Source of the DNA: a virus
Lineage: Duplodnaviria; Heunggongvirae; Uroviricota; Caudoviricetes
Reading direction: 5' to 3' (one strand)
Length of the DNA stretch: 64,000 nucleotides
IMG/VR virus record: IMGVR_UViG_3300044641_000519
Part shown: positions 1,036 to 20,290 of the stretch, one piece after another
Position numbering within the stretch: position 1 is the first letter of the stretch
Layout: each line of letters opens with the position of its first letter
Notes under the pieces: model-generated
Database searches by the model: none
Told to the model about the DNA's origin: nothing
What the model saw: the letters and a program-made list of their open reading frames with translations, nothing else
Program-made: the position numbers and the translations under genes

Positions 1036-1728
1036 ATGCAAACAATAGATGTAATCATACTTACAAATACTAAGACTGAAAAGAGTCTTAGAATGACTTT
1101 AAGAACTATATACACCTTACGTGATAGTGAGGTGGGGTATAAGTTCAATGTGCATTTAGTGGAGTCAGGAAACGATCATACAAAGGACTATCTTGAAACA
1201 AAGATGGTAGCCAATTACATTAAGCCCAATGAACCATTTAACTATAACAAGTTCATCAATATAGCTATGAACTATGTAACATCAGAGTGGGTTATTATAT
1301 CCAACAATGATGTAGGTTATGAGAAGAATTGGTTAACTGAGATGATGGTTGTTAGTAAAGAAAGACCAGACATACATTCTTTCTCTCCAAAAGATCCTGC
1401 ATTATACATCAAGTACTTTGATTGGCATTTTATAGATAGTCCATCTAAATATTTTGAAAGTTATATTGTACATGAAGCACTGATGGGTTGGTGTTTAGTT
1501 GTTAAGAAGGAAGCACTAGATAAGATAGGTCCTTTTGATGAACAGTTTGATATGTATTACCAAGACAATGACTATGCAAGAATGTTAATTAAACATGGTA
1601 TCAAGCATGCGTTAGTGAGAGATTCTATTGTCTGCCATTTGAGAACAGTAAATATAACCAAGCTCACTCCTGAAAGCATTAAGAAAATGGAAGAAGACAA
1701 AATTAAATTTGAAAGAAAATGGGAATAG
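1036..1728 (+). CDS. glycosyltransferase, family 2-like (GT-A fold), putative
   Basis: N-terminal IDVIILTNTK segment resembling the GT2 'SVIIPTYN' start, an acidic NND/QDNDY DxD-like motif, size ~230 aa; sits in the GT cassette. Confidence 0.45.
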   Translation: MQTIDVIILTNTKTEKSLRMTLRTIYTLRDSEVGYKFNVHLVESGNDHTKDYLETKMVANYIKPNEPFNYNKFINIAMNYVTSEWVIISNNDVGYEKNWLTEMMVVSKERPDIHSFSPKDPALYIKYFDWHFIDSPSKYFESYIVHEALMGWCLVVKKEALDKIGPFDEQFDMYYQDNDYARMLIKHGIKHALVRDSIVCHLRTVNITKLTPESIKKMEEDKIKFERKWE

Positions 1729-4006: not shown

Positions 4007-4405
4007 TTATTCAATAATTGTAGTTGTTGTTGTAGTGGTAGTAGGTTCTATAGGTGCCTCAGTTGTTGTAGTTGTAGTTGTAGGTTCTATAGGAGCTTCA
4101 GTTGTAGTGGTAGTTGTAATTGGAACAGGAGGCACATAATCACCTGTGATTGTTAGGTTAAGTTGAGCAGCTACCCAGTCCCAAGCATAAGAATCCACTT
4201 CCCATTGTGCGTAGGCTTCACCTGTCATATTAAGGTTGCCTTGAGCCACTTGAATACCTTGTGTGCCATCTTCATTCTCTGTAAATAAAGCATAGTAGAA
4301 TGTAGCACTTGTTCCTAAAGTTACATTTATGGCATAAGCATTTAATATCTTAGCCTCTAAGTTTTGTCCGTTGTCCCATATTGAGACTGGTTGAATTGTC
4401 TTCAT
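4007..4405 (-). CDS. hypothetical virion protein with tandem Thr-rich linker repeats
   Basis: C-terminus contains two copies of TTTTTT(T)EAPIEP encoded by a ~42-nt tandem DNA repeat. Confidence 0.45.
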   Translation of the reverse strand: MKTIQPVSIWDNGQNLEAKILNAYAINVTLGTSATFYYALFTENEDGTQGIQVAQGNLNMTGEAYAQWEVDSYAWDWVAAQLNLTITGDYVPPVPITTTTTTEAPIEPTTTTTTTEAPIEPTTTTTTTTIIE

Positions 4406-4432
4406 TTTTATTTGTTTTTATTTTTATTTTTA

Positions 4433-6115
4433 TTAGCATGTTCCGTCAAACATTTGAATAGAAACTGTACCTCCACCAGTTACAACTTGCCCAGCAAATG
4501 ATCTACTTGTTCCAGTTGCACTTACGCAAGTAAGATTAGAAGAAGTGTCTATAACCTCCACAGAGTCATTGCTTATATTTGTATAAGATACAACTATTGT
4601 TCTTGATGCCCCAGTTTGCGTTGTTGTTCCAGATGCACCATTACCAGCTGTTATTGGGAATACAACACCACTTACTTGCACACTATTAATGGTTATATCT
4701 GTAATTGATGTACCAGCAGTATTATTAGTAATATCAACAAAAGCAGGACCTGCCGCAGTTGTAGTGGTGGTAGTTGTTGGAGTGTTTAATAATGCTTTTC
4801 TATATATTTGGCTCCAAGCACGAGCTGTTGTAGCACTGACTAAAAAACCAGATCCTCCATTTATACTATAGTTAAACTGCCCTATATTGTTTAACATCAT
4901 GGCAATATAATTGTTTGTAATACCTGTAGTGATAGCTGTACCACCAGCTATAGCAACATTATTAGTATACCCATCACTTTGTGCAAAAGAAGTACCTGAA
5001 TTAAATGATGCTATAACTAAAGGTGAAAATGATGAAGGAGAGTAGAATGCTGTAGTTGTAACCTCATTTGTAGCCCCCACCATAACTTGCCCATTATCTG
5101 ATATAGTTGCAGAGGTAAATCCTACACGTCTTGTGCTAGCAAAATAACTAACTGTATTTGAATACCTTTCAGTAAAGCTAGAACCAAAATTGTTTGTAAC
5201 AAATGCTTTTACTCCTTGTGTTCCACCAAGACCTGGTTCAAGATAGTCAGTTGTTAAAAACTGATTTTGACCTGTTCCATCTAAGGCAATATCAAAAAAT
5301 CTTGAAAACTCGCTACCACCACTTCTTGTCCAAGTAGATCCATAGTTAGTTGAGTAAATTCTAAATGACCAAGGTCTTGGAGTATTAATCCCTCCTGGAT
5401 CTACTTCATAAGAATAAACAGCAGTCATATATTGACCATTACCTGATACAGATATTTTAAATGGATAATTGTTATACATATTAACATTCATAGAATCTGT
5501 ATATATAGTACCAAATGAAACACCATAATCTGATGATGCTACAAGTAAAGCCTGTTTGAGACCTCCTGCACTCAAAGTGTTTGTTAGACCTGCTATACCT
5601 ATATATTGTCCATTATTAGACATAGCTACACCTGTTGGATAAAGGGTGCCACCAAAAACTCCACTTATTAATTTTGCTGTGAATGTAGCTCCTCCATCAC
5701 TAGATAGATAAACTGTAAGACTTAATGAATTAGTAACAACAGCAATGTATGTTCCTGTACTATCTCCTGCTATTGCTGTCCAAGTATAAGCAGATGTTAA
5801 ACCTGATAAAGCTGTAAAAGTGTTTCCCCCATCTGTAGATTTATAAGCAGCTGTTCCTGCCACCCCATACATTACATATGGAGAGGTACTAGTAATTCCT
5901 GATAAATCTTCTCTAGTTACTAATTGATTTGATGCTTTGGCAGCATATGTAGGAAGTGCTGTATTTATATTTACATAAGTGTTAGCTTCAGTTTTTGTGA
6001 TTTGCTTAAGACTGCTTGGTATAGTTGTCTTAGCTGTAAAAAAACCTTGAGTAACACCACTTTGTAAGTTATTAAAACTAATGGTCTGATTTTGTTGTAA
6101 ATCACTATATGCCAT
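4433..6115 (-). CDS. BNR/Asp-box repeat protein (sialidase-like beta-propeller); putative glycan-binding or glycan-cleaving tail appendage
   Basis: Four S-x-D-x-G-x-T-W/F Asp-box matches (STDGGNTF, SSDGGATF, SSDYGVSF, STNYGSTW); poly-Thr linker (PTTTTTTTAAG) before a C-terminal domain; immediately downstream of the fibre genes. Confidence 0.55.
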   Translation of the reverse strand: MAYSDLQQNQTISFNNLQSGVTQGFFTAKTTIPSSLKQITKTEANTYVNINTALPTYAAKASNQLVTREDLSGITSTSPYVMYGVAGTAAYKSTDGGNTFTALSGLTSAYTWTAIAGDSTGTYIAVVTNSLSLTVYLSSDGGATFTAKLISGVFGGTLYPTGVAMSNNGQYIGIAGLTNTLSAGGLKQALLVASSDYGVSFGTIYTDSMNVNMYNNYPFKISVSGNGQYMTAVYSYEVDPGGINTPRPWSFRIYSTNYGSTWTRSGGSEFSRFFDIALDGTGQNQFLTTDYLEPGLGGTQGVKAFVTNNFGSSFTERYSNTVSYFASTRRVGFTSATISDNGQVMVGATNEVTTTAFYSPSSFSPLVIASFNSGTSFAQSDGYTNNVAIAGGTAITTGITNNYIAMMLNNIGQFNYSINGGSGFLVSATTARAWSQIYRKALLNTPTTTTTTTAAGPAFVDITNNTAGTSITDITINSVQVSGVVFPITAGNGASGTTTQTGASRTIVVSYTNISNDSVEVIDTSSNLTCVSATGTSRSFAGQVVTGGGTVSIQMFDGTC

Positions 6116-6116
6116 A

Positions 6117-6380
6117 TTATTTTAATTTAGCTTCTAATTCTTCAATACGTTTTTCCAAACTAGCAACCTTTGCCACTAACACTTGTGCGTAAGACAAAGA
6201 TAAGAAACCATCTTCACTTTCTATCACTGCACTTGGTAATATTTCTTGTAAGTCCTGTGCGTAGTAACCTAATTCTTCTTTACCATCTTTAATGTATAGC
6301 TTAGGCTTTACAGCTTCTATTCCACTAATTATAGGGTTATCACTTATCTCTTTCTTTAAACGCTTATCTGAACTTTCAAA
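6117..6380 (-). other. peptidase S74 / intramolecular chaperone domain of the 1972-aa fibre (predicted autocleavage at S|DKRLK)
   Basis: SDKRLK motif encoded near 6366-6385, followed by a coiled-coil C-terminus. Confidence 0.6.
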
Positions 6381-9300
6381 GAATGATGTAGCTGTGACTG
6401 ATGAACTAAATGTAGCAGCACCTGTTGAATAATTTAAGATTAATGGAAACCCATTTGTTCCAACTGAATAAAATCCAAAATTATCTGAATTTTCATAAAT
6501 TCCTGTAAACCATCTTTGTACATTTACGCTACTATAATTTACTCCAGCTGAAGCAACTGATGTTCCTCTATTTGAATTTAAAGTTGCGTAAGTAGTACCA
6601 TTTATATTAACTCCATTATTAGTACCATAAGCACCACTAAATGAAGCAATACCACTTACTTGTAACTTTTGACCTGTGTCTGTTGCAGTTCCTATTAATA
6701 CATTACCACCGCTTGTGATACGCATACGTTCTGCGCTATTCGTTCCTAATACTAAAGGAATTGCTTGTGTTGTAACCATACCCATTGAGGTACTATCGGT
6801 AGCTATATAACCATATCTTGTACTTTGAGCATTATTCCAAAACTCCATTTGTCCTACACTATCAGCTGCTCTACCTCTTAATCTTAAATTTATTGCAGTA
6901 CTATTGTCGGCAACTACATCTAAAGGTGAACTTGGACTACTCGTTCCTATCCCTACATTTCCAGCATTAGTAATTGTAACCTTAACAGTATCATTAGTAG
7001 TAAATACAACATCTTTTGCACCAATACTACCAAAGTAAACTTTGTCTGCTAAAGCATCGCCTGTACTTGCATTTGCAAAACCAAAATGTGCAACAAGCGT
7101 CCCTGCATTATTTAGCAAATGTGTGCCTGAGTAACCACTTGCAGACTGATTGTATAATGACAATACTGCTGCTGCACTAGCATTTCTTACTACTGATAAT
7201 TTATATGAACCAACAGATGTAGTTCCAATTCCTACATTTGTGCCATCATCATAAATAACACTATTACCTAAAGATGTAGAACCTGTCCATTTTGAAATAT
7301 AATTGGTAGTACCACTACCTGTTACACCACTTCCACCACCTCCTCCAATAGTTACACCATTAATTTGGAATACACCATTAATGTTTACGTTACCATTAAC
7401 TTGTAAAGCTCCTCCACCTGTAATACCTGCAGTATTAATTAATACTTGGCTAGCTTGATTAATAGTCATTACAGTAGTTAAAATACTACTTTGTAATGTC
7501 TTAAAATATAAAACTCCACCAGTTCCTGCAAATTTACTTCCTTGTATTTGTGCTTTTGTTTGACCAATATCAGCCTTAAAGTTTAAAAAAGTATCACCTG
7601 CACTATTATCACCAGAGATGCTTAATGTAGCATTTGTTGTAGGTCCACCTACTATTACTTCACCACCGCTTGTGATTCTCATTCGTTCGGTAGGTCCAGT
7701 GTTGTTAGTTGCAGAAGTTGAAAATGTTAAATATCCATTACCTGATTCACTATATAAACTAATTACACTTGCCGCCTTTCCTGTATTGCTAAATGTTCCG
7801 TTAATTGGATTTCTTACATTTGATATTACCATTACATCAGCAGTAGCAATTGTAGCTACATAACCACCATAAGCAGAAGTTCCTGTTCTAAGCATTGCTC
7901 CACTTGTTCCATCAACTTGAAGTGTATTAAAGTTTGATACTGATTCTGGACTACTCGTTCCTATTCCAACGTTACCACCATTTGTAATACGCATTCTTTC
8001 GTTAAAAGATATAGCTGAACCTGCAGTTCCAGAAGCAGCAGTGAACCATCTAAATATACCTTCACCAGCATCGTAATTAGTAGACGCACCTGTTCTTGCA
8101 TAAATCCAACCTGATGCTCCATAATATGCGTTCGCACTTATAACTGGACCTCCACCACTACCAGAAAATAAAGCATCACCAACTCTACCAATTTCAATTG
8201 AAGTATATATACCACCACTAATCCAAGCACTTGGTACTACTCCGATTCCAACGTTACCACCGCTTGTGATAACAAGTTCATCATTACCAGAACCATTATA
8301 GTTCATTCTGTAACTATTGTCGCTATTAGTATAAATATCCCATCTATTTGTATTAGTTGAAATATCATATAAAGCTAAATAACCTCCTGCTCTTGCATTA
8401 ATAGCACCATTTGCCGTTACACTACTTGAGAATGTAGCAGCACCACCATTACCAATAGTCACTAAATCAGTTCCACCTGTACCTGTAATATTTATTGAAG
8501 CATCTGATGCTTTGTAATATATTGTTCTTGGACTACCACTTGCATTAGTTGCTAATGTTAATATGGCATTACTACCAGAACCTAAACTACCAATAGTTAA
8601 TCCATTTACTGCCGTTACACTACCACCAAATGTTCCATTTCCACTTGCAGCAAAATCACCATTACTACCACCTGTAGCTGATATATTAACTCCTGGTGTA
8701 CAAACGTGAGTTAATGTAGAACCTGTTTGAGCTGACCCTCCAAATGTAACTGTTTCATTGTTTAAAGGATACACCTCAACATTCATTGTACAGACATTAG
8801 GAGAATTGCTAGTTGCTGAAACTGAAAAGTTTTCATCATTATTACTTATAACTCTTAAAGTTAATAATGTGTAAATACCTGCTTGAGAGGTGATTAAAAT
8901 ATCTTGAAAATGATTAACTAATATATCAGCTGTTACGTTGATAACTACACTTCCAGTAGTGCCTTGTAATGTCATTCTAACAGCAGATGCTAAAGAATTA
9001 CCTGTTACATTACAAACCACTGTATATCCTGCATTACTTACATTAGCTGTAGAAACATATCTTTTAACAGCTCTTTCAAGTGAGCTTGAATTAAAGTAAT
9101 AATCTGTAGCACTTACAGTGCTTGAGAATGTAGCAGATCTATCAGTAGCAATAGATAATGCAGTTGTAAATGTATTAGAAGTGGCTATGTCAGCCCCACC
9201 TGAAACTCTTATAGTAAAAGGGACTGATGCAAATCCTAAAAAAGGATTCTGTCCTCCTATTTTTACAAACCCTAATCTTGGAACTGCTTGTGCATCTGTT

Positions 9301-12035
9301 CCAATATAAGTGGATTCTCCATTTACACTAATGGTACCAGTAGGTGAAAAGATTATATTATTAGTCCAAGTTCCTCCATTTAAATGCCAAAAAGCTAAAT
9401 CATAAGTAGCATCTTGTTGTAAAATCCAACCTCTATTATTTGTACTATCTAATATTGTAAATCTTGAACTACCTCCTACTGTATTTGAACTACCTGCTCC
9501 ATTTGCTATTATTTCAGCAGTAGCTCCTGTAGTTCTAATGTTACCAGTAAATGTAGCAGTTGTGCCATTTAAAGCTCCTGTCAACGTACCACCTGCTAAA
9601 GGTAAGTAAGTAGAAGATGCACTACTTGTAGTTAAATATGTATTTGAATCTATACTTCCATCTGCTTTTAAAAACTGAGTTGATGTACCACCGCTTTTTA
9701 TTAAACTATTTGCTGTTACAGAAGATGAGAATGTAGCTGTACCAGTTACCTGGAAAGTTGCACCATTACTTGCTTGAGTTCCTATTAATACGTAACCATC
9801 AGATGTGATACGCATACGTTCAACAACACTTGTAGCAGATGCACCAAATCCTGTTCCAAATGAAACACCTGCATTGTTATTGCCATTAAATTGAAGGTAA
9901 CCCAGCCATGTAGTATCTACCTTTTGTTGTATTCTGAAACCTGCACTTGTCCAAGTAGTACCATTAACAACACGAGTATTTGTTATTTCTAAATAATCAT
10001 CATTATCACCTGTATCAACTTGCAATCTTTGAACTAATGATTGGTTTCCTAATGTTGTCCCAAGGTTAGTCCCTACAACATTTAATTTGAATGATGCGTC
10101 AGCATTTCCTCCAATACCTATATTCTTATTACCATTCCAATCATAAGGAAACTCTATTTCACTACCAAGACCCTGATCTCCCCATCTTGATGTTAGTAAA
10201 CGAATAGATGATATTCTTACTGATGCAGCGTTGGTAGTAGTTATAGTTAGTCTAGCATAGGTATCTCCACCAAAGGGACTAATATAAAACCAAATAGGGA
10301 TAGCCTGATTACTATTTGATGATGTATGTCTAACTGTCCAACTGACATTGTCTGTAGAAGTTTCAAATACAATTGTTTTTGTTGATGTTACTCCTATATA
10401 TGTAAATCCAATAACTAACCAACTTGCATCGTTAAAAGAAACTCCTGTCCAAATCCATCTTGCAGAAATTATAGTTGTACCATTAATAATCTCAATATTT
10501 TGAGCTTGTTTTTGTGCAAATAATGCATTATTTAATGTTGCAGCATTATAAGTGGTACCATTAGCTGATGTTTGATATTGAGGTGAGTATAATCCAAATG
10601 AAAATACATCATGCCATAAGTATGGAGAAATAGGAGATTGTGCAATCTGTGAAGTATCAGATGTTATCACTGTATTTGTTAATGATCCATTCTGCTTAAA
10701 ACTCTGTAAACCATATCCAAAAATACCTCCAGTAGATGATACGTTTACTAAATTAGTTCCATCAAATGTTAAGTTAGCTTCAGCGTTTGCTGTATTAGTA
10801 GTTCCTAATGATGTAAGAATTCTATTATCTACTGCATTTGTAATAGTACTAAATCCAGTACCAGACGTACCAGAAGAACCAGCAGCACCATTGGCACCTG
10901 ATGTGCCAGATGTTCCTGTAGTACCACTAGTTCCCTTTGTACCACTAGTACCACTAGATCCTGCTACACCACTAGCTCCACTAGTACCAGAAGAACCAGC
11001 AGCACCTGATATACCAGAAGTTCCTGTAGTTCCACTTGTACCATTTATACCACTAGTACCACTTGTTCCTTTAGTGCCGCTTGTACCACTAGATCCTGCT
11101 ACACCATTTATACCAGATGTACCAGAAGAACCACTTGTAGCAGAAGTACCACTTGACCCACTTGTTGCAGAGGTACCAGACGATCCATTAGTACCTGATG
11201 TACCACTTGAACCACTGGTTCCACTAGTTGCAGAGGTTCCGCTTGACCCTGAGGTGGCAGAAGTTCCAGAGCTTCCAGACGTACCACTTGTACCAGACGA
11301 ACCACTAGTGCCACTAGTTGCAGAAGAACCTGAAGACCCACTGGTTCCTGAAGTTGCTGATGTACCACTAGTACCTCTTGTTCCTGCAATCCCTGAGCTA
11401 CCTGAAGTTCCTGCAGTACCATTACCTCCAGACGCACCATCCAAGTTTACTGTCCATGCTGTGAATGTACCAGATCCCACTGTTCTAGTTGGGGCTCCAA
11501 ATTGAAGAGCTCCTGTAGATGGGTTGTATGAAATAACCTCACACTCTTGAAAGTTTGTAATGCTATTAACTATTATTATAGATTGAGCCACTGTATAAGC
11601 CAACCCTGTTCCTACAGTGATTGTCCCAGCATTGCCTAAAGTGAAAGATGTTGTAGATGTAGTGGCATATCTATCTCCAGATAAACCTCCAGTACCACTG
11701 CTTCCAGAAGTACCAGTAGAACCAGACGTACCTGATGTTGCTGAAGTTCCAGACGTACCCTTAGTACCACTTGTACCACTTGATCCAGAGCTTGCAGATG
11801 TACCTGAAGAACCACTAGTCCCTGAAGTAGCTGAACTACCAGACGAACCAGATGTTGCAGATGTACCTGAGCTACCACTAGTACCAGATGTTCCAGATGA
11901 GCCACTACTACCAGAAGTAGCTGATGTACCTGATGAGCCATTTGTACCAGAAGTTCCACCAGTTCCTGAAGTAGAATAACTGATTGGTACTCCACTATCA
12001 GTCAAAAGATTATTAGTAATTAAAGCTATTCCCAT
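6117..12035 (-). CDS. giant tail fibre with collagen-like G-X-Y repeats, ERMRITSGGNVGIGT-type fibre repeats and a C-terminal S74 intramolecular chaperone (self-cleaving) domain
   Basis: Long (GTS/GSS/ATS)n triplet tracts; repeated ERMRIT[ST][GD]G.V.IG motif (5 copies); C-terminal SDKRLKKEIS...LEKRIEELEAKLK matches the endosialidase-chaperone/peptidase S74 signature. Confidence 0.8.
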   Translation of the reverse strand: MGIALITNNLLTDSGVPISYSTSGTGGTSGTNGSSGTSATSGSSGSSGTSGTSGSSGTSATSGSSGSSATSGTSGSSGTSASSGSSGTSGTKGTSGTSATSGTSGSTGTSGSSGTGGLSGDRYATTSTTSFTLGNAGTITVGTGLAYTVAQSIIIVNSITNFQECEVISYNPSTGALQFGAPTRTVGSGTFTAWTVNLDGASGGNGTAGTSGSSGIAGTRGTSGTSATSGTSGSSGSSATSGTSGSSGTSGTSGSSGTSATSGSSGTSATSGTSGSSGTSGTNGSSGTSATSGSSGTSATSGSSGTSGINGVAGSSGTSGTKGTSGTSGINGTSGTTGTSGISGAAGSSGTSGASGVAGSSGTSGTKGTSGTTGTSGTSGANGAAGSSGTSGTGFSTITNAVDNRILTSLGTTNTANAEANLTFDGTNLVNVSSTGGIFGYGLQSFKQNGSLTNTVITSDTSQIAQSPISPYLWHDVFSFGLYSPQYQTSANGTTYNAATLNNALFAQKQAQNIEIINGTTIISARWIWTGVSFNDASWLVIGFTYIGVTSTKTIVFETSTDNVSWTVRHTSSNSNQAIPIWFYISPFGGDTYARLTITTTNAASVRISSIRLLTSRWGDQGLGSEIEFPYDWNGNKNIGIGGNADASFKLNVVGTNLGTTLGNQSLVQRLQVDTGDNDDYLEITNTRVVNGTTWTSAGFRIQQKVDTTWLGYLQFNGNNNAGVSFGTGFGASATSVVERMRITSDGYVLIGTQASNGATFQVTGTATFSSSVTANSLIKSGGTSTQFLKADGSIDSNTYLTTSSASSTYLPLAGGTLTGALNGTTATFTGNIRTTGATAEIIANGAGSSNTVGGSSRFTILDSTNNRGWILQQDATYDLAFWHLNGGTWTNNIIFSPTGTISVNGESTYIGTDAQAVPRLGFVKIGGQNPFLGFASVPFTIRVSGGADIATSNTFTTALSIATDRSATFSSTVSATDYYFNSSSLERAVKRYVSTANVSNAGYTVVCNVTGNSLASAVRMTLQGTTGSVVINVTADILVNHFQDILITSQAGIYTLLTLRVISNNDENFSVSATSNSPNVCTMNVEVYPLNNETVTFGGSAQTGSTLTHVCTPGVNISATGGSNGDFAASGNGTFGGSVTAVNGLTIGSLGSGSNAILTLATNASGSPRTIYYKASDASINITGTGGTDLVTIGNGGAATFSSSVTANGAINARAGGYLALYDISTNTNRWDIYTNSDNSYRMNYNGSGNDELVITSGGNVGIGVVPSAWISGGIYTSIEIGRVGDALFSGSGGGPVISANAYYGASGWIYARTGASTNYDAGEGIFRWFTAASGTAGSAISFNERMRITNGGNVGIGTSSPESVSNFNTLQVDGTSGAMLRTGTSAYGGYVATIATADVMVISNVRNPINGTFSNTGKAASVISLYSESGNGYLTFSTSATNNTGPTERMRITSGGEVIVGGPTTNATLSISGDNSAGDTFLNFKADIGQTKAQIQGSKFAGTGGVLYFKTLQSSILTTVMTINQASQVLINTAGITGGGALQVNGNVNINGVFQINGVTIGGGGGSGVTGSGTTNYISKWTGSTSLGNSVIYDDGTNVGIGTTSVGSYKLSVVRNASAAAVLSLYNQSASGYSGTHLLNNAGTLVAHFGFANASTGDALADKVYFGSIGAKDVVFTTNDTVKVTITNAGNVGIGTSSPSSPLDVVADNSTAINLRLRGRAADSVGQMEFWNNAQSTRYGYIATDSTSMGMVTTQAIPLVLGTNSAERMRITSGGNVLIGTATDTGQKLQVSGIASFSGAYGTNNGVNINGTTYATLNSNRGTSVASAGVNYSSVNVQRWFTGIYENSDNFGFYSVGTNGFPLILNYSTGAATFSSSVTATSFFESSDKRLKKEISDNPIISGIEAVKPKLYIKDGKEELGYYAQDLQEILPSAVIESEDGFLSLSYAQVLVAKVASLEKRIEELEAKLK
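10775..11965 (-). repeat. coding collagen-like (Gly-Ser/Thr-Ser) triplet repeat tracts in the 1972-aa fibre gene
   Basis: degenerate 9-nt/18-nt periodic DNA encoding GTSGSSGTSATSGSS... Confidence 0.8.
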
Positions 12036-12058
12036 TATTCAAAGTTAGTTTATTTCTA

Positions 12059-15000
12059 TTATATAAATGTAAATTCTCTCCATGATGTACTTGTTTTAAC
12101 CCATAATCCTTCAACTCCATCAGTTTGATATACTATTAATCCTGTTTCAGGAGAAGCTATTGCTAATCTTTGAGCAGCTGTCATTCTTGGAGGTAAGAAA
12201 CCTTGTGTAGTTGAATTTACTGCAAGTCTTGCTGAAGGAATTTCTGTATAAGTTCCGCCATTTTGGATAAGTAGATTACCTGTTGTTTCAAACCATTGCG
12301 ACCATCTTGTTCCTCCATTGCTTAATATTGAAACACCTGCAGCTGTATCACTATATATACCTCTAGTATAAATAGATGGCACAACTATAACTGCTGAATA
12401 TATATTATTCCATCTAAAATTTGATAACCCTAATGTTCTTGTATTATCTGTTGATGGTATAATATTCCCTGCAACTCTTATTGCTGTATTTGTAACACCT
12501 GTAAACGCACCATTTGTAAATGTTGGGTTAATGTCTAAACCTACAAGTGTATCATTGTTTGCTGTTGCTACCAAAGTAGGATTAAAAAATACTCCTCTTG
12601 CTGTTCCACTTGTAGGACGTACAGTTGTACTTACTTGGAAAGGAGCAGTAGGGGTGGTAGTTCCAATACCCATTCTTGGTACAGGGAAAGCTCTAAAAGC
12701 CCATCTATCTCCTGCAAGCTGACCACTTACTGATAATCTAACTTGAACACCAGAGTCTAATGTTTGGAATGCTCCAGTTATAGTAACGTTAGTCCCTGAT
12801 GGTGTTCCAGTCCAACTACCAAGTCCCCAGTTAAATGTTGTTGATGAAGTAATAGTTACCCAATAAATTCTATTTGAGCTTCCTGTAAATCCAGTTACAT
12901 CCACATTTAATGTTCCTGTACCTGAACCATTATCTTTTACTAAATTGTATGTTGTACTTGTATATGGGTCTCCCTTTATTGTAGCATTTGCTAAGTTATC
13001 AGGATTTGTTGTGAAATATGGAGTACTTGCTGGTAAGCTAAATGAACTCCAAAAGTTACTATTTTGTCCAACAAATTGACTTGTAAACCCTGCAAACTTA
13101 AGTGGTTTCCATCCTGAACTTGCATTTTGCCAGTCACCAACAAACCAATGGAAAAAGTCTTGAACAGTGTCTGGATTGTCTGTCAATTTAAACTCATACA
13201 TTGTTTGGTCATTAGCATACTCCACAACGTTCATTGAAGCACCATCTGTTGATTTTTCAAATGTTAATGAGGCTACTTGACCTATCCCATTATTAACTAA
13301 TGTAATATTGTTTGTTCTAAGCCTAGTTGAATCAAAAAGTCCATAAGAAGAATTGTTTACTGCTGGTATAGTACCAGAAGTTACTGCTTGGTTTGTATCA
13401 GTAAGAGTTGTTGTGTTAACTCCAAATACTGAAATGTATGAACTATATGAATTTGAAACATTGCTTTTATATACTCTATATCCAGTTGCACCTTGAACTA
13501 ATGACCAAGATAAAGCTACAGAACTTGTTGAACCAGTTGTAACCACTGAAAGCTCATTGCTACCAGTAGTTAATAATCCCTCAGTATCATAGGCTACTAT
13601 TCTATAGAAATATGTGGCAGCAGGTAGTGTTCCACCAGAAGCAGAACCTACAGCAGAATTCAAAGTTGGAACTGTTAAAGAACCAATTAATAATTTACTA
13701 AATTTAGCTGCATGGTTTAATGACCTTATAGCAACGTTTAGATTATTAGCAAATGCACCATTGGTGAAAGTTGGATTTATATCCAAGCCCACCAACGCAT
13801 CGTTATTAGCAGATGCTACCAATGTAGAAGTTACTATTGTTCCTATTGCTAAACCACTTGCAGCAGTTGTAGAACCTGTTATTGTTGCTTGTCCATTTAA
13901 ACGAGTAGTACCTGTAACATCTAATCTAAATCCAGCATCTGTGAATGTACCTCCGTTTTGTAAAAGTAAATTTCCTGTTGTAAACCATTGACCTGATTTA
14001 GTTGCAAAAGCAGGATAAAATTCAAATCCAGATGTTCCTGAAGATAAGAATTGTCTAATGTGTCCTTGTATAAAATTAAAAGAAGGATTTCCTAAAGAAA
14101 ATAAAGCTGATGAGGATGGAACAATAGTTCCTGCTACTCTAATAGCATATAAATTGACACCTGTAAATGCACCAACTGAAAATGTAGGAGCAATATCTAA
14201 ACCAACTAAATTATCTCCATTCGCAGAAGCTACTAAAGTAGTATTAATTAATTGACCTCTACTTATTGCACTAACCGCAGTTTCAGTACCACCAACTGTT
14301 AATTGTGTTGCAGTACCTAAAGTAGTTGTTCCTATGCCTGTATCACCTGCTAAATAGTTAGCAGCAGTTCCATTCATATACAAGTTCCATCTATTAGTAC
14401 CACTTGGTATTTGTCCTTGAAAAGCTATATTAGTACCTGCTCCTGTCATAGAAGAACTAATAGCAAATCCTACTTGGGTAGTTATATTTGAACCAGCACC
14501 TATTGTCCCTTGAGTAGCAAAATAATGGAAATAAGTACCTAAAGTAAATGATGCAGCTTGTGTATTTAATTGACTAAGATTACTAAATACATTAGTAGTT
14601 ACATCACTTAATACAAAACCTGCTTGTGCAATTCCATAAGCAGTAGAAGCACCTGTAATGTTTTTAGCAACAAATAAACTATATCCTGTTAAACTTGTAG
14701 TACCTATGCCCAAAGCACCTGCTAAATAATTATCAGCTGTACCACCTGCATAAATATTAAACTTACCTGTTCCTGCTGAAAGGTTTAAATTTACTGCTCT
14801 TGATATAGTTGTAGCTGTATGGTCATTTATATTTAAACCATAAAAGTTAGCAATGTTTTGTGGTAAAAATGCTGTTTCAAATCCAATATAATTTGTATAT
14901 GTACCTGTATTTGTTGGGGGGCCTGTTGAACCAGTCTTATATCCAACCACTGTACCAAAGTTTCCATTACCTTGTGTAACTGCTATAAAAATACCATATT

Positions 15001-18000
15001 GTGCGCCTTGTGTAGCAGTTCCACTATTATTAATTAATCCTTGAAAAGCAACATATCCATTACCACTTGTTGTACTTCTATTTACTATAATCCTTGTATC
15101 ATTAGCAGTTAAACCATTATAGGTAAAAGCATCATCATTAATATTCCAAGTTTGTCTACTAATTATATTCCAACCATTTGCACTACCTGTAAAATTTCCA
15201 CTTGCACCATTTTCAAGTGAACCAAAATTATTACCTGCTGGTAAAACTTTTGTAACAGTACCACTTGTAAAACCATTTATAGCAGTATCACTACCTAAAG
15301 TAATCAAAGTACCATTATCAGTAATATTACTATTACCTATTGTAGTTGCACTTGTAAACTTAGCCACTGTATTAGTAGTACCAGAAACTGCCACTGATGT
15401 ACCAGATGATCCACTAGTGCCAGCTGTACCACTAGATCCTGCTGTCCCACTAGAACCAGAGGTTCCAGAAGTTCCACTTGAACCACTCGTACCACTAGTA
15501 CCACTAGACCCTGAAGATCCTGATGTTGCACTTGTTCCACTAGAACCAGAAGTACCACTAGATCCAGATGAACCATTAGTACCAGCTGTTCCAGAACTTC
15601 CACTTGTTCCACTTGTACCTGAAGAACCACTTGATGCACTTGTACCACTAGTGCCACTTGTTCCACTAGTTCCTTTTGTACCACTCGTTCCACTTGATCC
15701 AGACGTACCAGTTGAACCAGATGTACCACTTGATCCACTTGATCCATTTGTACCAGCTGTACCACTAGAACCTGAGGTGCCAGATGTACCAGAAGATCCA
15801 CTTGATCCACTCGTAGCAGAAGTACCAGAAGTTCCTGATGTTCCTTTTGTTCCACTAGTGCCACTTGAACCAGATGTACCAGTAGAACCACTAGTTCCAC
15901 TGCTTGCACTTGTACCACTTGTGCCACTTGAACCATTAGTACCAGAAGATCCATTAGTTCCAGATGAACCAGAGCTTCCACTAGTTGCAGAAGTTCCTGA
16001 GCTGCCTGATGTGCCAGAAGTTGCAGATGAACCACTAGATCCAGATGTGCCTGCTGTTCCACTAGAACCACTCGTAGCACTTGTACCACTAGATCCGCTC
16101 GTACCACTTGTAGCACTGGTTCCAGAAGAACCACTCGTTCCACTAGTGCCAGAACTACCACTTGTTCCAGAGGTGGCAGAAGTACCTGATGTACCCTTAG
16201 TTCCACTCGTACCACTTGAGCCTGATGAACCACTTGAAGCTGATGTACCAGAAGAACCAGATGTTCCAGAGGTGCCAGATGTACCATTAGCTCCTGACGT
16301 ACCAGAGGTACCAGAAGGAGGGTTGAATGTGGTTTGTGCGTAAGAATAATTGCTTGTGCCCTCTGTGTAGAAAGTTATTGTATTAGCAGAGCCGCCATTG
16401 TGTTGTGCATAGATTTGACAATATAGTCTGTCTGTTGCGTTCAATGCAGTTTGACCTAAGAAAAGATCAGTGAAAAACTCTTTGATGACACCGCTACTCA
16501 AAGATTCTGTGTCTAAGTTTGTAACACCTAGAAGAGTAGATGTTCCTCCTGTTGTATATTTATATAGCTCTATATCAACTGCTACATTTACATTTGCGTT
16601 GATAGAAAAGTGAGTGACCCAAGCCCAGTTTCCTGAAGGTAGATTTGTAGCATTTGGTACACCTGAATCTGTAGCATAAGTTGCTATTAGTGTACGAACA
16701 TTTTGTGTAACACTTAGTACTACAGTTTGTTCAGCAGCACCTGTTCCAATAGGTGACCACTCTTTATATGTAGGTGTGCCAAAAGCACTATTTGTATTTA
16801 CAGATTGATTTAAGTAGTATAAGAGACCTCCAGCTACACCACTTACACCAGAACTTCCTGCTGTACCAGATGTACCTGAACTGCCTGATGTTCCACTTGT
16901 TCCAGAAGTTCCTGAGCTACCACTTGTACCACTTGATGCACTTGTGCCAGAGGTTCCACTAGAACCATTTGTACCTGATGTTCCACTAGATCCACTAGTT
17001 GCTGATGTACCGCTTGAACCAGAAGTTGCAGATGTTCCACTTGTTGCACTGCTTCCACTTGTTGCACTTGTACCAGAAGATCCTGAGGTTGCACTAGTTC
17101 CAGAGCTACCATTAGTACCAGATGTACCGCTAGAGCCTGATGTACCACTTGTACCTGTAGAACCACTTGTACCACTAGTTGCACTGGTTCCAGATGTACC
17201 TTTTGTACCACTTGTACCAGAACTACCACTAGTAGCAGATGTACCAGAAGAACCAGATGTAGCACTTGTACCAGAACTTCCATTGGTACCTGACGTTCCA
17301 CTAGAACCAGATGTTCCACTTGATCCACTAGAACCACTTGTTGCTGATGTTCCAGAGCTTCCACTTGTTCCAGATGTTCCACTAGATCCTGAGGTACCAC
17401 TAGACGCAGATGTACCTGATGTAGCAGAAGTACCAGACGTGCCTGTAGAACCACTAGTTCCACTAGAACCATTAGTGCCAGATGAGCCTGAACTTCCAGA
17501 CGTACCACTAGTTGCAGATGTTCCAGAACTTCCACTAGTACCAGTAGTTCCAGAAGACCCACTTGTGCCTGAAGAAGCTGAAGTACCAGAAGACCCACTA
17601 GTTGCAGAGGTACCACTAGAACCTGCTGTTGCACTTGTACCTGATGAACCAGATGTTCCAGAGGTACCAGAAGATCCACTAGTACCAGAGGTAGCAGAAG
17701 TTCCACTTGTAGCAGACGTACCTGCAGTGGCAGATGTACCAGAACTACCAGCAGTGCCAGAAGTTCCTGAGGTGCCAACTGTTCCACTAGAACCAGATGT
17801 GCCTGATGTACCAGAGGTGCCAGAAGATCCATTTGTTCCACTAGTACCACCAGTACCTGATGAGCCAGAAGTTCCAGATGTTCCACTTGTTGCAGATGTT
17901 CCACTGGTTCCTGTAGTTCCACTAGAACCATTTGTTCCACTAGATCCAGAAGTGCCACTTGTTCCACTTGTTCCACTTGAACCATCTGTACCACTAGTTC

Positions 18001-20290
18001 CACTAGATCCACTTGTTGCACTTGTGCCACTAGTTCCTGCTGTACCACTAGATCCAGATGTAGCTGATGTACCAGATGTAGCAGATGAACCTGACGTACC
18101 TGACGTACCAGAACTTCCATTTGTTCCACTAGTTCCACTTGATCCACTAGTTCCAGAAGAAGCAGAGGTTCCACTTGATCCACTAGTACCAGAAGTGCCA
18201 GATGATCCAGATGTTGCTGAAGTACCACTAGATCCACTTGTTCCAGCTGTACCTGATGATCCACTAGTACCACTAGTACCGCTTGATCCATTAGTACCAG
18301 AAGTTCCAGACGTGCCAGAACTACCACTGGTAGCACTTGTTCCACTGGTGCCTGTTGTACCAGACGTACCAGAAGAGCCAGAGCTTCCACTTGTACCAGA
18401 GCTAGCTGACGTACCACTTGATCCATTAGTGCCAGCTGTACCAGCACTTCCAGATGTACCTGCTGTACCATCTCCACCAGATGCACCATCTAGATTGACA
18501 GTCCATGTACTATATGTACCAGAGCCTACAGTTCTGCTAGGAGCACCAAACTGAAGGGCTCCTGTATTAATATCATAAGAAATTACCTCACATTCTTGGA
18601 AATTTGCACTATCATACACTATGATGATAGACTGTGCTACTGTGTAGGCTAGTCCTGTACCAACTATGAGTGTCCCAGCGTTTCCTAATGTAAAAGATGT
18701 ATTTGATGTTGTTGCATATCTATCACCACTTAAACCAGCAGTTCCAGATGATCCAGAAGAACCAGATGTTCCTGAAGAAGCTGACGTACCTGAAGAAGCA
18801 GATGTACCACTAGTGGCACTTGTACCACTAGAACCTGATGTACCAGAGGTTGCACTTGTACCACTTGAGCCTGACGTTCCACTAGACCCAGATGTACCTG
18901 AAGATGCAGATGTACCACTGCTACCACTAGTTCCACTTGTACCACTACTACCACTTGTTCCAGAAGTTGCACTTGTTCCTGAACTTCCAGAAGTGGCTGA
19001 AGTTCCACTTGATCCACTGGTAGCACTAGTTCCACTAGAACCACTTGTTCCAGATGTTCCACTAGAGCCAGAAGATCCAGACGTAGCTGATGTACCACTA
19101 GACCCAGAGCTAGCACTTGTTCCACTTGTTCCAGAAGATCCACTTGTTGCAGACGTTCCAGAAGTTCCTGTTGTACCAGAAGACCCATCTGTACCAGATG
19201 TGCCACTAGTTCCAGTTGTACCTGATGACCCTGATGTACCAGAACTTCCATCAGTTCCTGAGGAACCTGATGTACCTGCTGTACCAAAATAGTTTCCTAA
19301 ACTACCATCACCTCTTATATATTGAGCAGTTGTACCATTTGCTATGACGTTGATTGTACCATTTGTTCCTGTTGCAGGGGCTCCCACTGTAAATGCTGAA
19401 GGCATAGTTAATCCTACAGAAACAAGAGTACCTACTGACCAACCTCTGTTAGCAGATAAATTATATGTAACATTATTAATTGTAAGTGTTCTAGTACTAG
19501 GAACAGGTACATATCCTAATACAGATTCAATATCAAGATTTGTAATAGGAGCAGCTGATGTAACTAATCCTTTTCCATTTACACCAAACTTTAAGAAAGT
19601 ATTACTTCCATAAATATTACTATTAACTGGTGCCAAAGTAAGAGTTACAGGAGATCCTGTCGTACCAGAACCTGTTACATCTCCTACAAAAGATAAAGAT
19701 GCAGAAGGAACAGATATAGTTACAGGAGTTATATTTGTAACACGTCCTTTACCATCCACAGTTACTCTAGGAACTTGTGTAGAAGAACCATATGTACCAG
19801 GAGCAGTATTAACTGTTGCTAATGTTAGCACAGCAGATCCAGGACCTGTTGCTGTACCATCTCCTGTTAAAGCAGAAATATAGTTTCCAGCAGGTTGATA
19901 TGGTGTATTATCTAAGCTACCATCACCCTTAACAAAATCTGAAGACGTACCACCAATTGTAACATGTTTACCAGCATATAAATCTCCTGTATATGTTAAA
20001 TCAAAACCTGCTGCTGTAATAATTGTATCATTATTCATAGTGCCACCAAGACCTACAGGTAATCCTGGTCCAGATTGAAAAACACCATTATTAAATAAAT
20101 ATCCTATTGCAGCTTCCTGAAACTTAGCATCTATTTTTTGTAGAGCAGTTTGGATGCTATCATTAGTATTGATGCCAGTGTATACTAAGTTAGCACCTTC
20201 GTAAAATACGCAAGTGGAATTCAGTATGACTGGACATGGTTCAGGGGAACAAAATACTGGAACTGATTCAGAAGAGCAAGATGGATCCAT
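12059..20290 (-). CDS. giant tail fibre (2743 aa) with N-terminal Cys-rich adaptor module, phage tail-fibre repeats, three collagen-like blocks, FN3-like segment
   Basis: N-terminus MDPSCSSESVPVFCSPEPCP...YTGINTNDSIQTALQKID shared with two other proteins; ...TAPGTYGSSTQVPRVTVDGKGRVTNITPVTI matches the classical phage tail fibre repeat (G.Y..VTVD.KGRVT); GATGYRVYKSN is FN3-like; ~900 residues of GTS/GSS triplets. Confidence 0.8.
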   Translation of the reverse strand: MDPSCSSESVPVFCSPEPCPVILNSTCVFYEGANLVYTGINTNDSIQTALQKIDAKFQEAAIGYLFNNGVFQSGPGLPVGLGGTMNNDTIITAAGFDLTYTGDLYAGKHVTIGGTSSDFVKGDGSLDNTPYQPAGNYISALTGDGTATGPGSAVLTLATVNTAPGTYGSSTQVPRVTVDGKGRVTNITPVTISVPSASLSFVGDVTGSGTTGSPVTLTLAPVNSNIYGSNTFLKFGVNGKGLVTSAAPITNLDIESVLGYVPVPSTRTLTINNVTYNLSANRGWSVGTLVSVGLTMPSAFTVGAPATGTNGTINVIANGTTAQYIRGDGSLGNYFGTAGTSGSSGTDGSSGTSGSSGTTGTSGTSGTDGSSGTTGTSGTSATSGSSGTSGTSASSGSSGTSATSGSSGSSGTSGTSGSSGTSATSGSSGTSATSGSSGTSATSGTSGSSGTSGTSGSSGTSASSGTSGSSGTSGSSGTSATSGTSGSSGTSATSGTSASSGTSASSGTSGSSGSSGTAGLSGDRYATTSNTSFTLGNAGTLIVGTGLAYTVAQSIIIVYDSANFQECEVISYDINTGALQFGAPSRTVGSGTYSTWTVNLDGASGGDGTAGTSGSAGTAGTNGSSGTSASSGTSGSSGSSGTSGTTGTSGTSATSGSSGTSGTSGTNGSSGTSGTSGSSGTAGTSGSSGTSATSGSSGTSGTSGSSGTSASSGTSGSSGTSGTNGSSGTSGTSGSSATSGTSATSGSSGTAGTSGTSATSGSSGTSGTDGSSGTSGTSGTSGSSGTNGSSGTTGTSGTSATSGTSGTSGSSGTGGTSGTNGSSGTSGTSGTSGSSGTVGTSGTSGTAGSSGTSATAGTSATSGTSATSGTSGSSGTSGTSGSSGTSATAGSSGTSATSGSSGTSASSGTSGSSGTTGTSGSSGTSATSGTSGSSGSSGTNGSSGTSGSTGTSGTSATSGTSASSGTSGSSGTSGTSGSSGTSATSGSSGSSGTSGSSGTSGTNGSSGTSATSGSSGTSATSGSSGTSGTKGTSGTSATSGTSGSTGTSGTSGSSGTSGTNGSSGTSATSGSSGTSATSGSSATSGTSATSGSSGTSATSGSSGTSGTNGSSGTSGTSASSGTSGSSGTSGTSGTSGSSGTSGTAGSSGVSGVAGGLLYYLNQSVNTNSAFGTPTYKEWSPIGTGAAEQTVVLSVTQNVRTLIATYATDSGVPNATNLPSGNWAWVTHFSINANVNVAVDIELYKYTTGGTSTLLGVTNLDTESLSSGVIKEFFTDLFLGQTALNATDRLYCQIYAQHNGGSANTITFYTEGTSNYSYAQTTFNPPSGTSGTSGANGTSGTSGTSGSSGTSASSGSSGSSGTSGTKGTSGTSATSGTSGSSGTSGTSGSSGTSATSGTSGSSGTSATSGSSGTAGTSGSSGSSATSGTSGSSGTSATSGSSGSSGTNGSSGTNGSSGTSGTSASSGTSGSTGTSGSSGTSGTKGTSGTSGTSATSGSSGSSGTSGTSGSSGTAGTNGSSGSSGTSGSTGTSGSSGTSGTKGTSGTSGTSGTSASSGSSGTSGTSGSSGTAGTNGSSGSSGTSGSSGTSATSGSSGSSGTSGTSGSSGTSGTSGSSGTAGSSGTAGTSGSSGTSVAVSGTTNTVAKFTSATTIGNSNITDNGTLITLGSDTAINGFTSGTVTKVLPAGNNFGSLENGASGNFTGSANGWNIISRQTWNINDDAFTYNGLTANDTRIIVNRSTTSGNGYVAFQGLINNSGTATQGAQYGIFIAVTQGNGNFGTVVGYKTGSTGPPTNTGTYTNYIGFETAFLPQNIANFYGLNINDHTATTISRAVNLNLSAGTGKFNIYAGGTADNYLAGALGIGTTSLTGYSLFVAKNITGASTAYGIAQAGFVLSDVTTNVFSNLSQLNTQAASFTLGTYFHYFATQGTIGAGSNITTQVGFAISSSMTGAGTNIAFQGQIPSGTNRWNLYMNGTAANYLAGDTGIGTTTLGTATQLTVGGTETAVSAISRGQLINTTLVASANGDNLVGLDIAPTFSVGAFTGVNLYAIRVAGTIVPSSSALFSLGNPSFNFIQGHIRQFLSSGTSGFEFYPAFATKSGQWFTTGNLLLQNGGTFTDAGFRLDVTGTTRLNGQATITGSTTAASGLAIGTIVTSTLVASANNDALVGLDINPTFTNGAFANNLNVAIRSLNHAAKFSKLLIGSLTVPTLNSAVGSASGGTLPAATYFYRIVAYDTEGLLTTGSNELSVVTTGSTSSVALSWSLVQGATGYRVYKSNVSNSYSSYISVFGVNTTTLTDTNQAVTSGTIPAVNNSSYGLFDSTRLRTNNITLVNNGIGQVASLTFEKSTDGASMNVVEYANDQTMYEFKLTDNPDTVQDFFHWFVGDWQNASSGWKPLKFAGFTSQFVGQNSNFWSSFSLPASTPYFTTNPDNLANATIKGDPYTSTTYNLVKDNGSGTGTLNVDVTGFTGSSNRIYWVTITSSTTFNWGLGSWTGTPSGTNVTITGAFQTLDSGVQVRLSVSGQLAGDRWAFRAFPVPRMGIGTTTPTAPFQVSTTVRPTSGTARGVFFNPTLVATANNDTLVGLDINPTFTNGAFTGVTNTAIRVAGNIIPSTDNTRTLGLSNFRWNNIYSAVIVVPSIYTRGIYSDTAAGVSILSNGGTRWSQWFETTGNLLIQNGGTYTEIPSARLAVNSTTQGFLPPRMTAAQRLAIASPETGLIVYQTDGVEGLWVKTSTSWREFTFI
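15340..19290 (-). repeat. coding collagen-like triplet repeat tracts (three blocks) in the 2743-aa fibre gene
   Basis: same periodic repeat family as 10775-11965; generates long antisense shadow ORFs (PLVPLVP...). Confidence 0.8.

Follow-up and report, generated by a model that had tools for sequence, protein, structure and literature searches.

From our analysis of IMG/VR virus record IMGVR_UViG_3300044641_000519, a stretch of 64,000 nucleotides (nt) from a virus of the class Caudoviricetes (the whole stretch is hereafter the window), two giant genes, F1 and F2, were predicted to encode paralogous fibres of a crAss-like phage. We consider it reasonably probable that these fibres have collagen-type shafts, that they are reshuffled among related phages in a manner linked to their triplet tracts, and that they are O-glycosylated by the product of a neighbouring gene which resembles the glycosyltransferase TibC. 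Each fibre would start with a short conserved N-terminal anchor, continue as a long shaft of proline-free (Gly/Ala)-Thr/Ser-Ser triplets punctuated by globular nodes (a shared beta-barrel of 85 amino acids (aa) and, in F2, a jelly-roll), and end in a large variable distal region, which in F1 closes with a self-cleaving trimerisation chaperone of the S74 type. The tracts would be trimeric collagen-type helices whose exposed Ser and Thr may be O-glycosylated by the TibC-like enzyme and further glycosyltransferases, with sugars standing in place of proline/hydroxyproline as the helix stabiliser. Such a role would explain the existence of a proline-free helix, since glycosylated Thr can stabilise a collagen helix that otherwise stays unfolded (PMC11923368). 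The parts of both genes are listed below; L072 and L159 are loci compared with the window, the latter a 114.8-kb metagenome contig, and ORF stands for open reading frame.

12059..20290 (minus strand): F2, giant fibre gene, 2743 aa (ORF, translation, Pfam Collagen 1.8e-97, PHROG tail-fibre families)
19286..20290 (minus strand): F2 N-terminal domain, aa 1-335 (70-94% aa identity to L072 and L159)
18719..19285 (minus strand): F2 tract a, 63 (G/A)XY triplets, aa 336-524 (triplet-run script)
18473..18727 (minus strand): F2 copy of the 85-aa beta-barrel module, aa 522-606 (alignment; 93% nt identity to module B of L159)
16823..18487 (minus strand): F2 tract b, 185 uninterrupted triplets, aa 602-1156 (triplet-run script; 85% nt identity to the L159 orthologue)
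16313..16822 (minus strand): F2 internal 170-aa domain, predicted jelly-roll beta-sandwich (structure prediction)
15395..16312 (minus strand): F2 tract c, 102 triplets, aa 1327-1632 (triplet-run script)
12059..15394 (minus strand): F2 distal non-repeat region, 1111 aa (only its first ~30 and last 67 aa are kept in the 240-aa L159 equivalent)
6117..12035 (minus strand): F1, giant fibre gene, 1972 aa (ORF, translation, Pfam Collagen 9.7e-27, PHROG tail-fibre families)
11670..11966 (minus strand): F1 tract a, 33 triplets, aa 24-122 (triplet-run script)
11424..11678 (minus strand): F1 copy of the 85-aa module, aa 120-204 (alignment; 93% nt identity to module C of L159)
10854..11438 (minus strand): F1 tract b, 65 triplets, aa 200-394 (triplet-run script; differs from L159 by a 9-nt indel, a single GAA triplet)
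6117..10853 (minus strand): F1 distal non-repeat region, 1578 aa, with four ERMRITSGG-V-IGT repeats (translation; mosaic identity to L159)
6225..6371 (minus strand): Peptidase_S74 intramolecular chaperone at the F1 C-terminus, aa 1889-1937 (PF13884, 24.5-25.1 bits against a cut-off of 22)

The PHROG families, the S74 chaperone and the anchor motif suggest that F1 and F2 are paralogous virion fibre genes. The N-domain of F2 contains a conserved anchor of ~55 aa (CPVILNSTCVFYEG...), common to fibres of other phages, and its motif CPVIL-STCVFYEG is kept in the gene fibA of locus L047 and in locus L236. At the opposite end of F1, the C-terminal Peptidase_S74 domain carries the Ser...Lys cleavage motif (SDKRLK, at aa 1889); this chaperone is a hallmark of trimeric phage fibres and spikes, and F2 is devoid of it. 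The motif ERMRITSGG-V-IGT, found at aa 740, 1347, 1451 and 1770, suggests a repeated structural unit in the non-collagen part of F1, and the same distal region holds a direct repeat of 92 nt (6640-6731 and 9730-9821, 74% identical). The 170-aa mid domain of F2 was located between tracts in 93 metagenome contigs, and structure prediction gave it, at moderate confidence, a jelly-roll fold similar to carbohydrate-binding modules and to the binding domains of cyanophage fibres; the model was built on 5 sequences and calls for caution (predicted local distance difference test, pLDDT, 69). Apart from S74 in the distal region of F1, no family in Pfam, PHROG or NCBIfam and no PDB sequence matched the mid domain, the N-domain of F2 or either distal region. 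Homologous-protein searches found nothing beyond short fragments for the module, its alignment or the mid domain. The representative protein library contains a counterpart of F1 (P0026) that is identical over 1972 aa, and a contig search with F1 as query found no contig encoding it.

Runs of (G/A)-X-X were located by a script in the translations of F1 and F2, giving five tracts with 448 triplets and no register break. At position 1, 389 of these triplets have Gly and 59 have Ala; Thr or Ser prevails at X and Ser at Y, and Pro occurs in none. A preliminary description of the window had claimed that the 1972-aa and 2743-aa genes share triplet tracts and that these tracts lack Pro, and both statements are borne out. 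Family-wide, over 39,205 triplets, position 1 is Gly in 93% and Ala in 7%, X is Thr in 58% and Ser in 29%, Y is Ser in 74%, and Pro stays below 0.5%; Ser and Thr together fill ~82% of the X and Y positions. The Pfam Collagen scores (PF01391) of F1 and F2 are far above the cut-off but largely compositional, and the tracts show neither the imino-acid (Pro/Hyp) nor the charge-pair stabilisation of the helix known from PF01391 proteins. From the absence of Pro and the 13% Ala at position 1, the tracts cannot be called canonical collagen. Extreme lengths for proline-free tracts were seen in other phages, namely one ORF with 956 collagen-like triplets among the loci selected with the TibC-like gene (L240-L319), and tract genes of 470 and 355 triplets in the L166-type phage.

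The glycosyltransferase (GT) cluster faces the fibre genes on the other strand and comprises four genes.

2719..3780 (plus strand): homologue of TibC/BAHT-type protein O-glycosyltransferases (PDB 4rap_A TibC, E 1.7e-39; convergent with the fibres)
1719..2726 (plus strand): GT1/GT4-family glycosyltransferase (Pfam Glyco_trans_1_4, 5.8e-8)
1036..1728 (plus strand): GT2-family glycosyltransferase (Pfam Glycos_transf_2, 3.9e-5)
483..1034 (plus strand): methyltransferase of the same cluster (Pfam Methyltransf_23, 5.9e-8)

TibC, a bacterial autotransporter heptosyltransferase (BAHT), hyper-glycosylates (heptosylates) Ser of the repetitive adhesin TibA, and the roles of its residues are described in PMC4358343. 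The protein encoded at 2719-3780 has only a weak GT9 match in Pfam, and TibC is its sole PDB sequence match, with an alignment that is nearly full length (aa 20-341 of the phage protein against 37-375 of TibC). Of the TibC residues that bind ADP-heptose, Thr226, Lys230 and Trp305 are kept, as are the catalytic base Asp110 and the four Cys of the iron finger (339, 342, 358, 370); across 49 distinct phage homologues, all 49 retain the catalytic Asp, the Lys and the four Cys, so that the catalytic and Cys4 features of the BAHT family are present. The position of Arg286 of TibC is occupied by Val here and by Thr or Val in most phage homologues. Among 238 loci obtained with fibre queries, 61 carry a TibC-like homologue, and all 61 have a tract of at least 20 triplets; in 55 of the 61 the homologue lies on the opposite strand, a median of 1.5 kb beyond the last tract gene. 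The TibC-like gene is also present in 28 of the 36 module loci of at least 18 kb. In the reciprocal search, at least 571 IMG/VR contigs were found to encode a TibC-like relative, and linkage was counted in the best 80 of them (46-72% identity): a proline-free Ser/Thr tract gene lies no more than 10 kb away in 55 and is convergent in 54 of these, and of the 34 loci that reach 18 kb, 30 contain a tract of 20 or more triplets. An association of the TibC-like gene with the module was considered and rejected; since the module was found in 17 and tracts in 55 of these 80 loci, the partner of the TibC-like gene is the tract, not the module. Locus L236 has backbone proteins that are only 27-30% identical to those of the window, a fibre N-domain at 82% and, beyond the fibres, a gene cluster at 72-93% aa identity. 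The reciprocal linkage of TibC-like genes and tracts, together with this co-transfer in L236, makes O-glycosylation of the fibres the most economical reading, and the fibre Ser/Thr residues are probably modified by the neighbouring enzyme.

Three further arrangements were observed around these genes. The megaphages LR756501.1 and LR756503.1 (735 kb) carry a module homologue (44%) and a TibC-like homologue (37%) far apart, at ~107.8 and ~580.2 kb. In the Microcystis phage Mel-JY01, a TibC-like domain is fused into a 1226-aa protein annotated 'methyltransferase FkbM'. A small DUF7936 protein (9e-24) is encoded between the fibre gene and the TibC-like gene of L236 (13570-13929, plus strand).

We regard it as unlikely that the GT cluster is unrelated to the fibres and serves to modify a host surface polysaccharide (e.g., in superinfection exclusion), DNA or another virion protein, in which case both would merely lie at the end of the structural module. 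The GT9 family also includes lipopolysaccharide heptosyltransferases, the module and the TibC-like gene are ~470 kb apart in megaphage LR756501, and phage glycosyltransferases acting on DNA and on host antigens are known, as outlined in PMC12619734. Against such an unrelated function, TibC is the only PDB sequence to match, the BAHT-specific iron finger is conserved, and convergent adjacency recurs in both search directions and across backbones of 27-30% identity.

The tracts of F1 and F2 carry indications of an ordered structure. Their register is unbroken over 33-185 triplets each. Between the window and L159, the orthologous tracts are 82-86% identical in nt, which is below the flanks, and differ by ~20 indels, all of which are multiples of 9 nt. 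Adjacent Ala triplets are absent from the window (0 observed vs 7.5 +/- 2.3 expected) and rare among 39,212 family triplets (15 observed vs 297 +/- 15 expected), a ~20-fold avoidance. In protein P0027, eleven copies of the 85-aa module are joined by short linkers of canonical collagen sequence (GAPGKQGEKGD). The unbroken register, the whole-triplet indels and the avoidance of adjacent Ala triplets appear to favour an ordered structure with a period of three residues rather than a loose spacer, and, taken together with the linkers of P0027, a trimeric collagen-type shaft. Indirect support for a trimer is given by the S74 trimer chaperone of F1 and by the whole-triplet indels, the structure having been predicted as a monomer only. 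With the rise of 0.286 nm per residue of a collagen helix, the helices would extend over ~300 nm in F2 and ~85 nm in F1.

That the tracts are instead disordered, mucin-like O-glycosylated spacers which hold globular domains apart seems improbable to us. The absence of Pro, the abundance of Ser/Thr and the adjoining cluster for protein glycosylation would all suit a spacer, and unglycosylated Thr-rich collagen peptides do stay unfolded (PMC11923368). Nevertheless, a spacer does not require that every third residue be Gly or Ala along 185 to 956 triplets, nor does it require whole-triplet indels or the avoidance of adjacent Ala triplets; in addition, the same module is linked by canonical collagen sequence in relatives, and the S74 chaperone of F1 is specific to trimers. 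The preliminary description had suggested that the tracts may be extended glyco-spacers and are probably not canonical collagen helices. The glyco part of this claim gains support from the adjoining cluster, and the missing Pro and the 13% Ala agree with a non-canonical sequence; the rejection of a helix is doubtful given the register, the 9-nt indels and the Ala avoidance, and an ordered helix is favoured over a spacer.

A number of points weigh against the proposal of glycosylated, collagen-type fibres. We infer trimerisation, helix formation and glycosylation from the sequences. A (Gly-Pro-Thr)10 peptide without sugars is a random coil (PMC11923368), and the tracts lack even the Pro; a triple helix would not usually have Ala at 13% of its Gly positions, and gaps in multiples of 9 nt are partly favoured in an alignment by the periodicity of the sequence. 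The loci in which linkage was counted are related and non-independent, and were selected by fibre or GT queries. The glycosyltransferases may have a different target, and no genes for sugar-nucleotide synthesis were recognised beyond the GT cluster in L236. The donor sugar may also differ from that of TibC because the sugar-binding Arg286 is replaced.

The preliminary description had further pointed to a shared module of ~90 aa, present as direct DNA repeats. The module is real, with a length of 85 aa and coordinates close to those proposed, and its two copies align without gaps at 71/85 identical aa (84%) and 187/255 identical nt (73%); nucleotide similarity, which had been put forward as a test, is therefore present, but as DNA repeats the copies correspond only loosely, the longest colinear exact run being 11 nt. 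The copies differ in 55 codons, 41 of them synonymously and 14 non-synonymously (non-synonymous divergence, dN, 0.10; synonymous divergence, dS, saturated). Since synonymous sites are fully randomised in the module and the tracts, the module is not a live DNA repeat, and it is best read as an old duplicated protein domain under purifying selection. The likeness of the copies is well above chance, as we found the module in 179 IMG/VR contigs (tblastn E down to 2e-42), of which 80 were kept for ORF inspection. These 80 contigs contain more than 100 ORFs with 1-6 module copies, always with tracts on both sides (41-618 triplets per protein), and often 2-3 module-tract genes per phage. A HMMER scan of 1.84 billion representatives gave at least 1051 clusters (E <= 1e-3), and a single protein holds as many as 11 copies; among deposited phage records, the module occurs only in the 735-kb uncultured megaphages, at 44% identity. 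It had no match in Pfam, PHROGs, NCBIfam or PDB sequences. An AlphaFold2 model built on 19 sequences predicts a confident seven-strand beta-barrel (pLDDT 88.9). The triplet register runs on into the GDR at the N-terminus of the module, and triplets start again from its GASGG end; judged from position and fold only, the module is probably an in-line trimer node or a point of helix re-nucleation, for which collagen interruptions provide a comparison (PMC11923368). The module was also noticed in P0025, a protein of 1512 aa that seems to have a signal peptide. Its collagen-like tracts enclose five copies of the module, and the motif GFLxPR...LLxYNT...W, which also ends F2, occurs in it twice. Building blocks of the fibres may thus be present in cellular (possibly Bacteroidota-like) surface proteins or prophages as well.

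We then compared the window with its relatives. Three of them share 90-94% nt identity with it in the gene upstream of the fibres, yet have three different fibre sets. The L159 contig is 93.6% identical in nt to window positions 26786-19239, 94.8% to 10979-8621 and 97% to 6427-3841. Its F2 homologue of 2404 aa is composed, in order, of the N-domain, module A, 71 triplets, module B, 38+114 triplets, the mid domain (94% aa), 99 triplets, a 145-aa globular insert, 56 triplets, module C, 46 triplets and the 240-aa distal end. The 145-aa insert (10.4-11.8 kb; aa 1638-1782) lies between two tracts and is absent from F2 of the window; a by-eye likeness to C1q/TNF domains was dropped, as Pfam gave no match. 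The F1 homologue of L159 has 1503 aa, with the same 24-aa N-terminus, a distal region at 92% aa identity, 17 triplets and no module, and it lacks a tract-module-tract block of 317 codons whose junctions both fall inside tracts. Because module C is the orthologue of the F1 module, a cassette of the F1 type sits in different genes in the two phages (F1 here, the F2 homologue in L159). All paralogous module pairs are 67-73% identical in nt while orthologues retain 93%, so that neither homogenisation nor gene conversion has taken place. Net tract lengths differ as well (185 vs 153 and 102 vs 99 triplets), and these are real differences. In L047/L048, identity of 90% nt continues to ~130 nt into F2 and is followed by complete divergence, with fibres of 457 and 1532 aa in their place. 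Mosaic boundaries were found in non-repeat DNA too, at window positions 20160, 12215, 8621, 7692, 7219 and 6427. In another family member, a gene of 355 triplets is 100% identical in four independent assemblies, and one of 470 triplets is 99.8% identical and gap-free in two. Between L166 and L171, relatives at 97-98%, there is a net difference of 270 nt at a tract end. The comparison shows that the fibres are modular and reshuffled, partly at tracts, at a few percent of divergence, and that they are not a hypervariable locus. The compared loci show three routes of change. Triplet units of 9 nt are gained or lost, singly or several at a time; entire tract-module-tract cassettes are inserted, deleted or moved, their junctions falling inside tracts; and all that follows the N-terminal anchor is replaced. 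Such events distinguish genomes a few percent apart and were not observed among the near-identical genomes of the other family member.

Exchange by RecA-type recombination needs roughly 23-27 bp of identity, and its efficiency climbs steeply with length. Tandem Repeats Finder (TRF) and a repeat finder detected only degenerate periodicity in the tracts (60-80% matches). As a null model, the protein was held fixed and synonymous codons were permuted 200 times among all tract positions. The longest exact repeat within tracts is 26 nt (null 26.9 +/- 2.7), repeated k-mer counts in the 4 kb of tract equal the expectation, and repeats of at least 21 nt are, if anything, fewer than expected (16 observed vs 30 +/- 13). 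Between the repeat DNA of F1 and F2 the longest exact match is 20 nt, and long exact or near-exact identity between copies, as in a recombination hot spot, was not found. Tracts and modules are therefore a poor substrate, the exact identity being short relative to the length that RecA-type exchange needs. The repeats are old and exist at the level of the protein, and their DNA has no strong tendency to recombine; codon randomisation keeps the tracts genetically stable, although they mark many sites where related phages differ. The proposal that the repeats are ideal substrates for slippage and exchange is supported neither by the modules, at 73% nt identity with at most 11 nt exact, nor by the tract repeats, which do not exceed the codon shuffle; the accompanying suggestion of fibre reshuffling holds insofar as the fibres are modular and reshuffled between related phages, and fails insofar as there is no gene conversion and the genes are stable at short distance. 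Collagen-like repeats had already been proposed as recombination sites in host-range genes of phages (PMC7242381; PMC5601072).

That modules and triplet DNA are active substrates of slippage and exchange, making fibre length and distal domains vary often within populations in the manner of a contingency locus, is improbable as well: the indels in multiples of 9 nt, the tract-bounded cassette differences between relatives, the 270 nt between L166 and L171, a collagen-repeat deletion that arose in the passaged Guarani virophage and the hot spots proposed for phages (PMC7242381) are all in its favour, but exact repeats are no longer than after a codon shuffle (26 nt at most, with 20 nt from gene to gene and 11 nt from module to module), paralogous modules are not homogenised, the 355- and 470-triplet genes are unchanged or nearly so across assemblies, and breakpoints occur in non-repeat DNA too.

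The identity of the phage can be judged from its structural block. Pfam detected a crAss-type major capsid protein (PF23898, 58275-59828, minus strand, 6.7e-28), a muzzle protein (PF25731, 43348-48570, minus strand, 3.3e-32), ring protein 1 (PF24228, 48497-49471, minus strand, 5e-9) and a P22-type portal (61791-63722, minus strand, 5.8e-13). With capsid, muzzle, ring and portal genes in one block, as in Crassvirales, its sequence identifies the source as an uncultured crAss-like phage. It is distant from isolates, the best match of the capsid protein being Leptolyngbya phage Lbo-JY46 at 26% identity. The distal DNA of F1 gave only matches of 60-93 nt among 50,697 phage records, to fibre genes of Synechococcus phages, and hence has no isolate relative. 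Between the fibres and the GT cluster lie two small genes, conserved in L159 at 98% and 89% aa identity, respectively.

4007..6115 (minus strand): two small genes of 560 aa and 132 aa (ORF list, Pfam and PHROG scans)

Two giant ORFs, 25446-36479 (3677 aa) and 20443-25446 (1667 aa), both on the minus strand, are located between the muzzle region and the fibres. No Pfam family matched either of them, the sole hit being a weak PHROG exonuclease in the 1667-aa protein, and they are conserved at 93-99% in L159 and L047 and at only 27-30% in L236; they may be cargo or ejection proteins of the crAss type. ORFs also overlap the tracts on the plus strand (15417-16343, 16944-18554, 18666-19292, 10891-11505) and out of frame on the minus strand (e.g., 15337-16287, 16843-18489); these are not likely to be genes and are read as shadows of stop-free repeat codons. 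No tRNA genes were found in the window.

Phage fibres decide host range. Collagen-like phage fibres are known in themselves, and the central idea of the preliminary description adds little alone because collagen-like stalks and their role in domain swapping were already known; what makes this case more interesting is the rule that the tract sequences follow, together with the undescribed module and the conservation of the TibC-type neighbour. The natural family is large, with more than 39,000 triplets examined and single genes of up to 956 triplets, and its rule (no proline, Thr/Ser only, isolated Gly-to-Ala replacements) should be useful to collagen biophysicists concerned with the stability of proline-free helices. 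What holds such a helix together finds a concrete and testable answer, sugars, in the linked TibC-type enzyme. If true, this would extend the BAHT family from bacterial adhesins to virions, as the first BAHT enzyme acting outside autotransporters, and would be the first glycosylation-dependent collagen fibre in a phage, with the 85-aa beta-barrel as a new node domain embedded in collagen. The 85-aa domain is widespread and missing from current domain libraries, and the codon-randomised tracts are an example of a phage keeping kilobases of protein repeat genetically stable. More tentatively, it is conceivable, though we would not expect it, that giant proline-free fibres, the TibC/BAHT enzyme and the accompanying GTs form a mobile host-recognition cassette in hundreds of uncultured phages, in which sugars stabilise the helix and the 85-aa domain is its node. 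Many of the contigs concerned are probably from fresh water, as judged by sample names only. Our literature search found no paper linking BAHT enzymes with phages and none on collagen-like tail fibres of crAss-like phages.

Among known systems, BclA, the exosporium glycoprotein of Bacillus anthracis, has a Thr-rich, O-glycosylated collagen-like region whose number of triplets varies between strains. BclA is a cellular spore protein with mostly GPT triplets, which contain Pro, and a C1q-like C-terminal domain. F1 and F2 share the Thr-rich collagen-like region but are Pro-free, and the F1 and F2 regions scanned with Pfam gave no C1q match. The proteins EPclA-D, collagen-like side-tail-fibre proteins of prophages in E. 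coli O157:H7, form trimeric triple helices without hydroxyproline, as shown by experiment (PMC3368898), and, like F1 and F2, are phage fibres in which a collagen-like stalk joins globular and trimerisation domains. The EPcl stalks are short, with much Pro at X and many charged residues (Ghosh et al. 2012, PMC3368898), whereas the tracts of F1 and F2 reach 185 triplets, contain no Pro and consist almost purely of Gly-Thr-Ser, with Ala in place of Gly in 13% of triplets; the module that interrupts them is also a different one, an undescribed beta-barrel. Duplessis and Moineau (2001; cited in PMC5601072 and PMC7242381) proposed a hot-spot role in recombination for the collagen-like repeats that flank the variable region VR2 in the antireceptor, a host-range protein, of Streptococcus thermophilus phage. 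According to these citing papers, the repeats separate domains that are swapped between related phages, as in F1 and F2, and are short and more exact, in proteins of siphoviruses; the repeats of F1 and F2, in contrast, are codon-randomised, and exchange was seen only between diverged genomes. Phage-encoded glycosyltransferases decorate virion proteins in mycobacteriophages (Freeman et al. 2023, as cited in PMC12619734); in that account the sugars are placed on C-terminal tails of capsid and tail-tube subunits by enzymes from outside the BAHT family, and collagen-like fibres play no part. A parallel to the gene at 2719-3780 is offered by the BAHT systems TibC/TibA and AAH/AIDA-I (PMC4358343), since this gene lies beside that of a giant repetitive Ser-rich surface protein, as tibC does beside tibA. 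Unlike TibC, the enzyme is phage-encoded, has Arg286 replaced and is accompanied by GT1, GT2 and methyltransferase genes, and its predicted activity would be directed at a presumed acceptor that is a collagen-like fibre instead of a beta-helical autotransporter.

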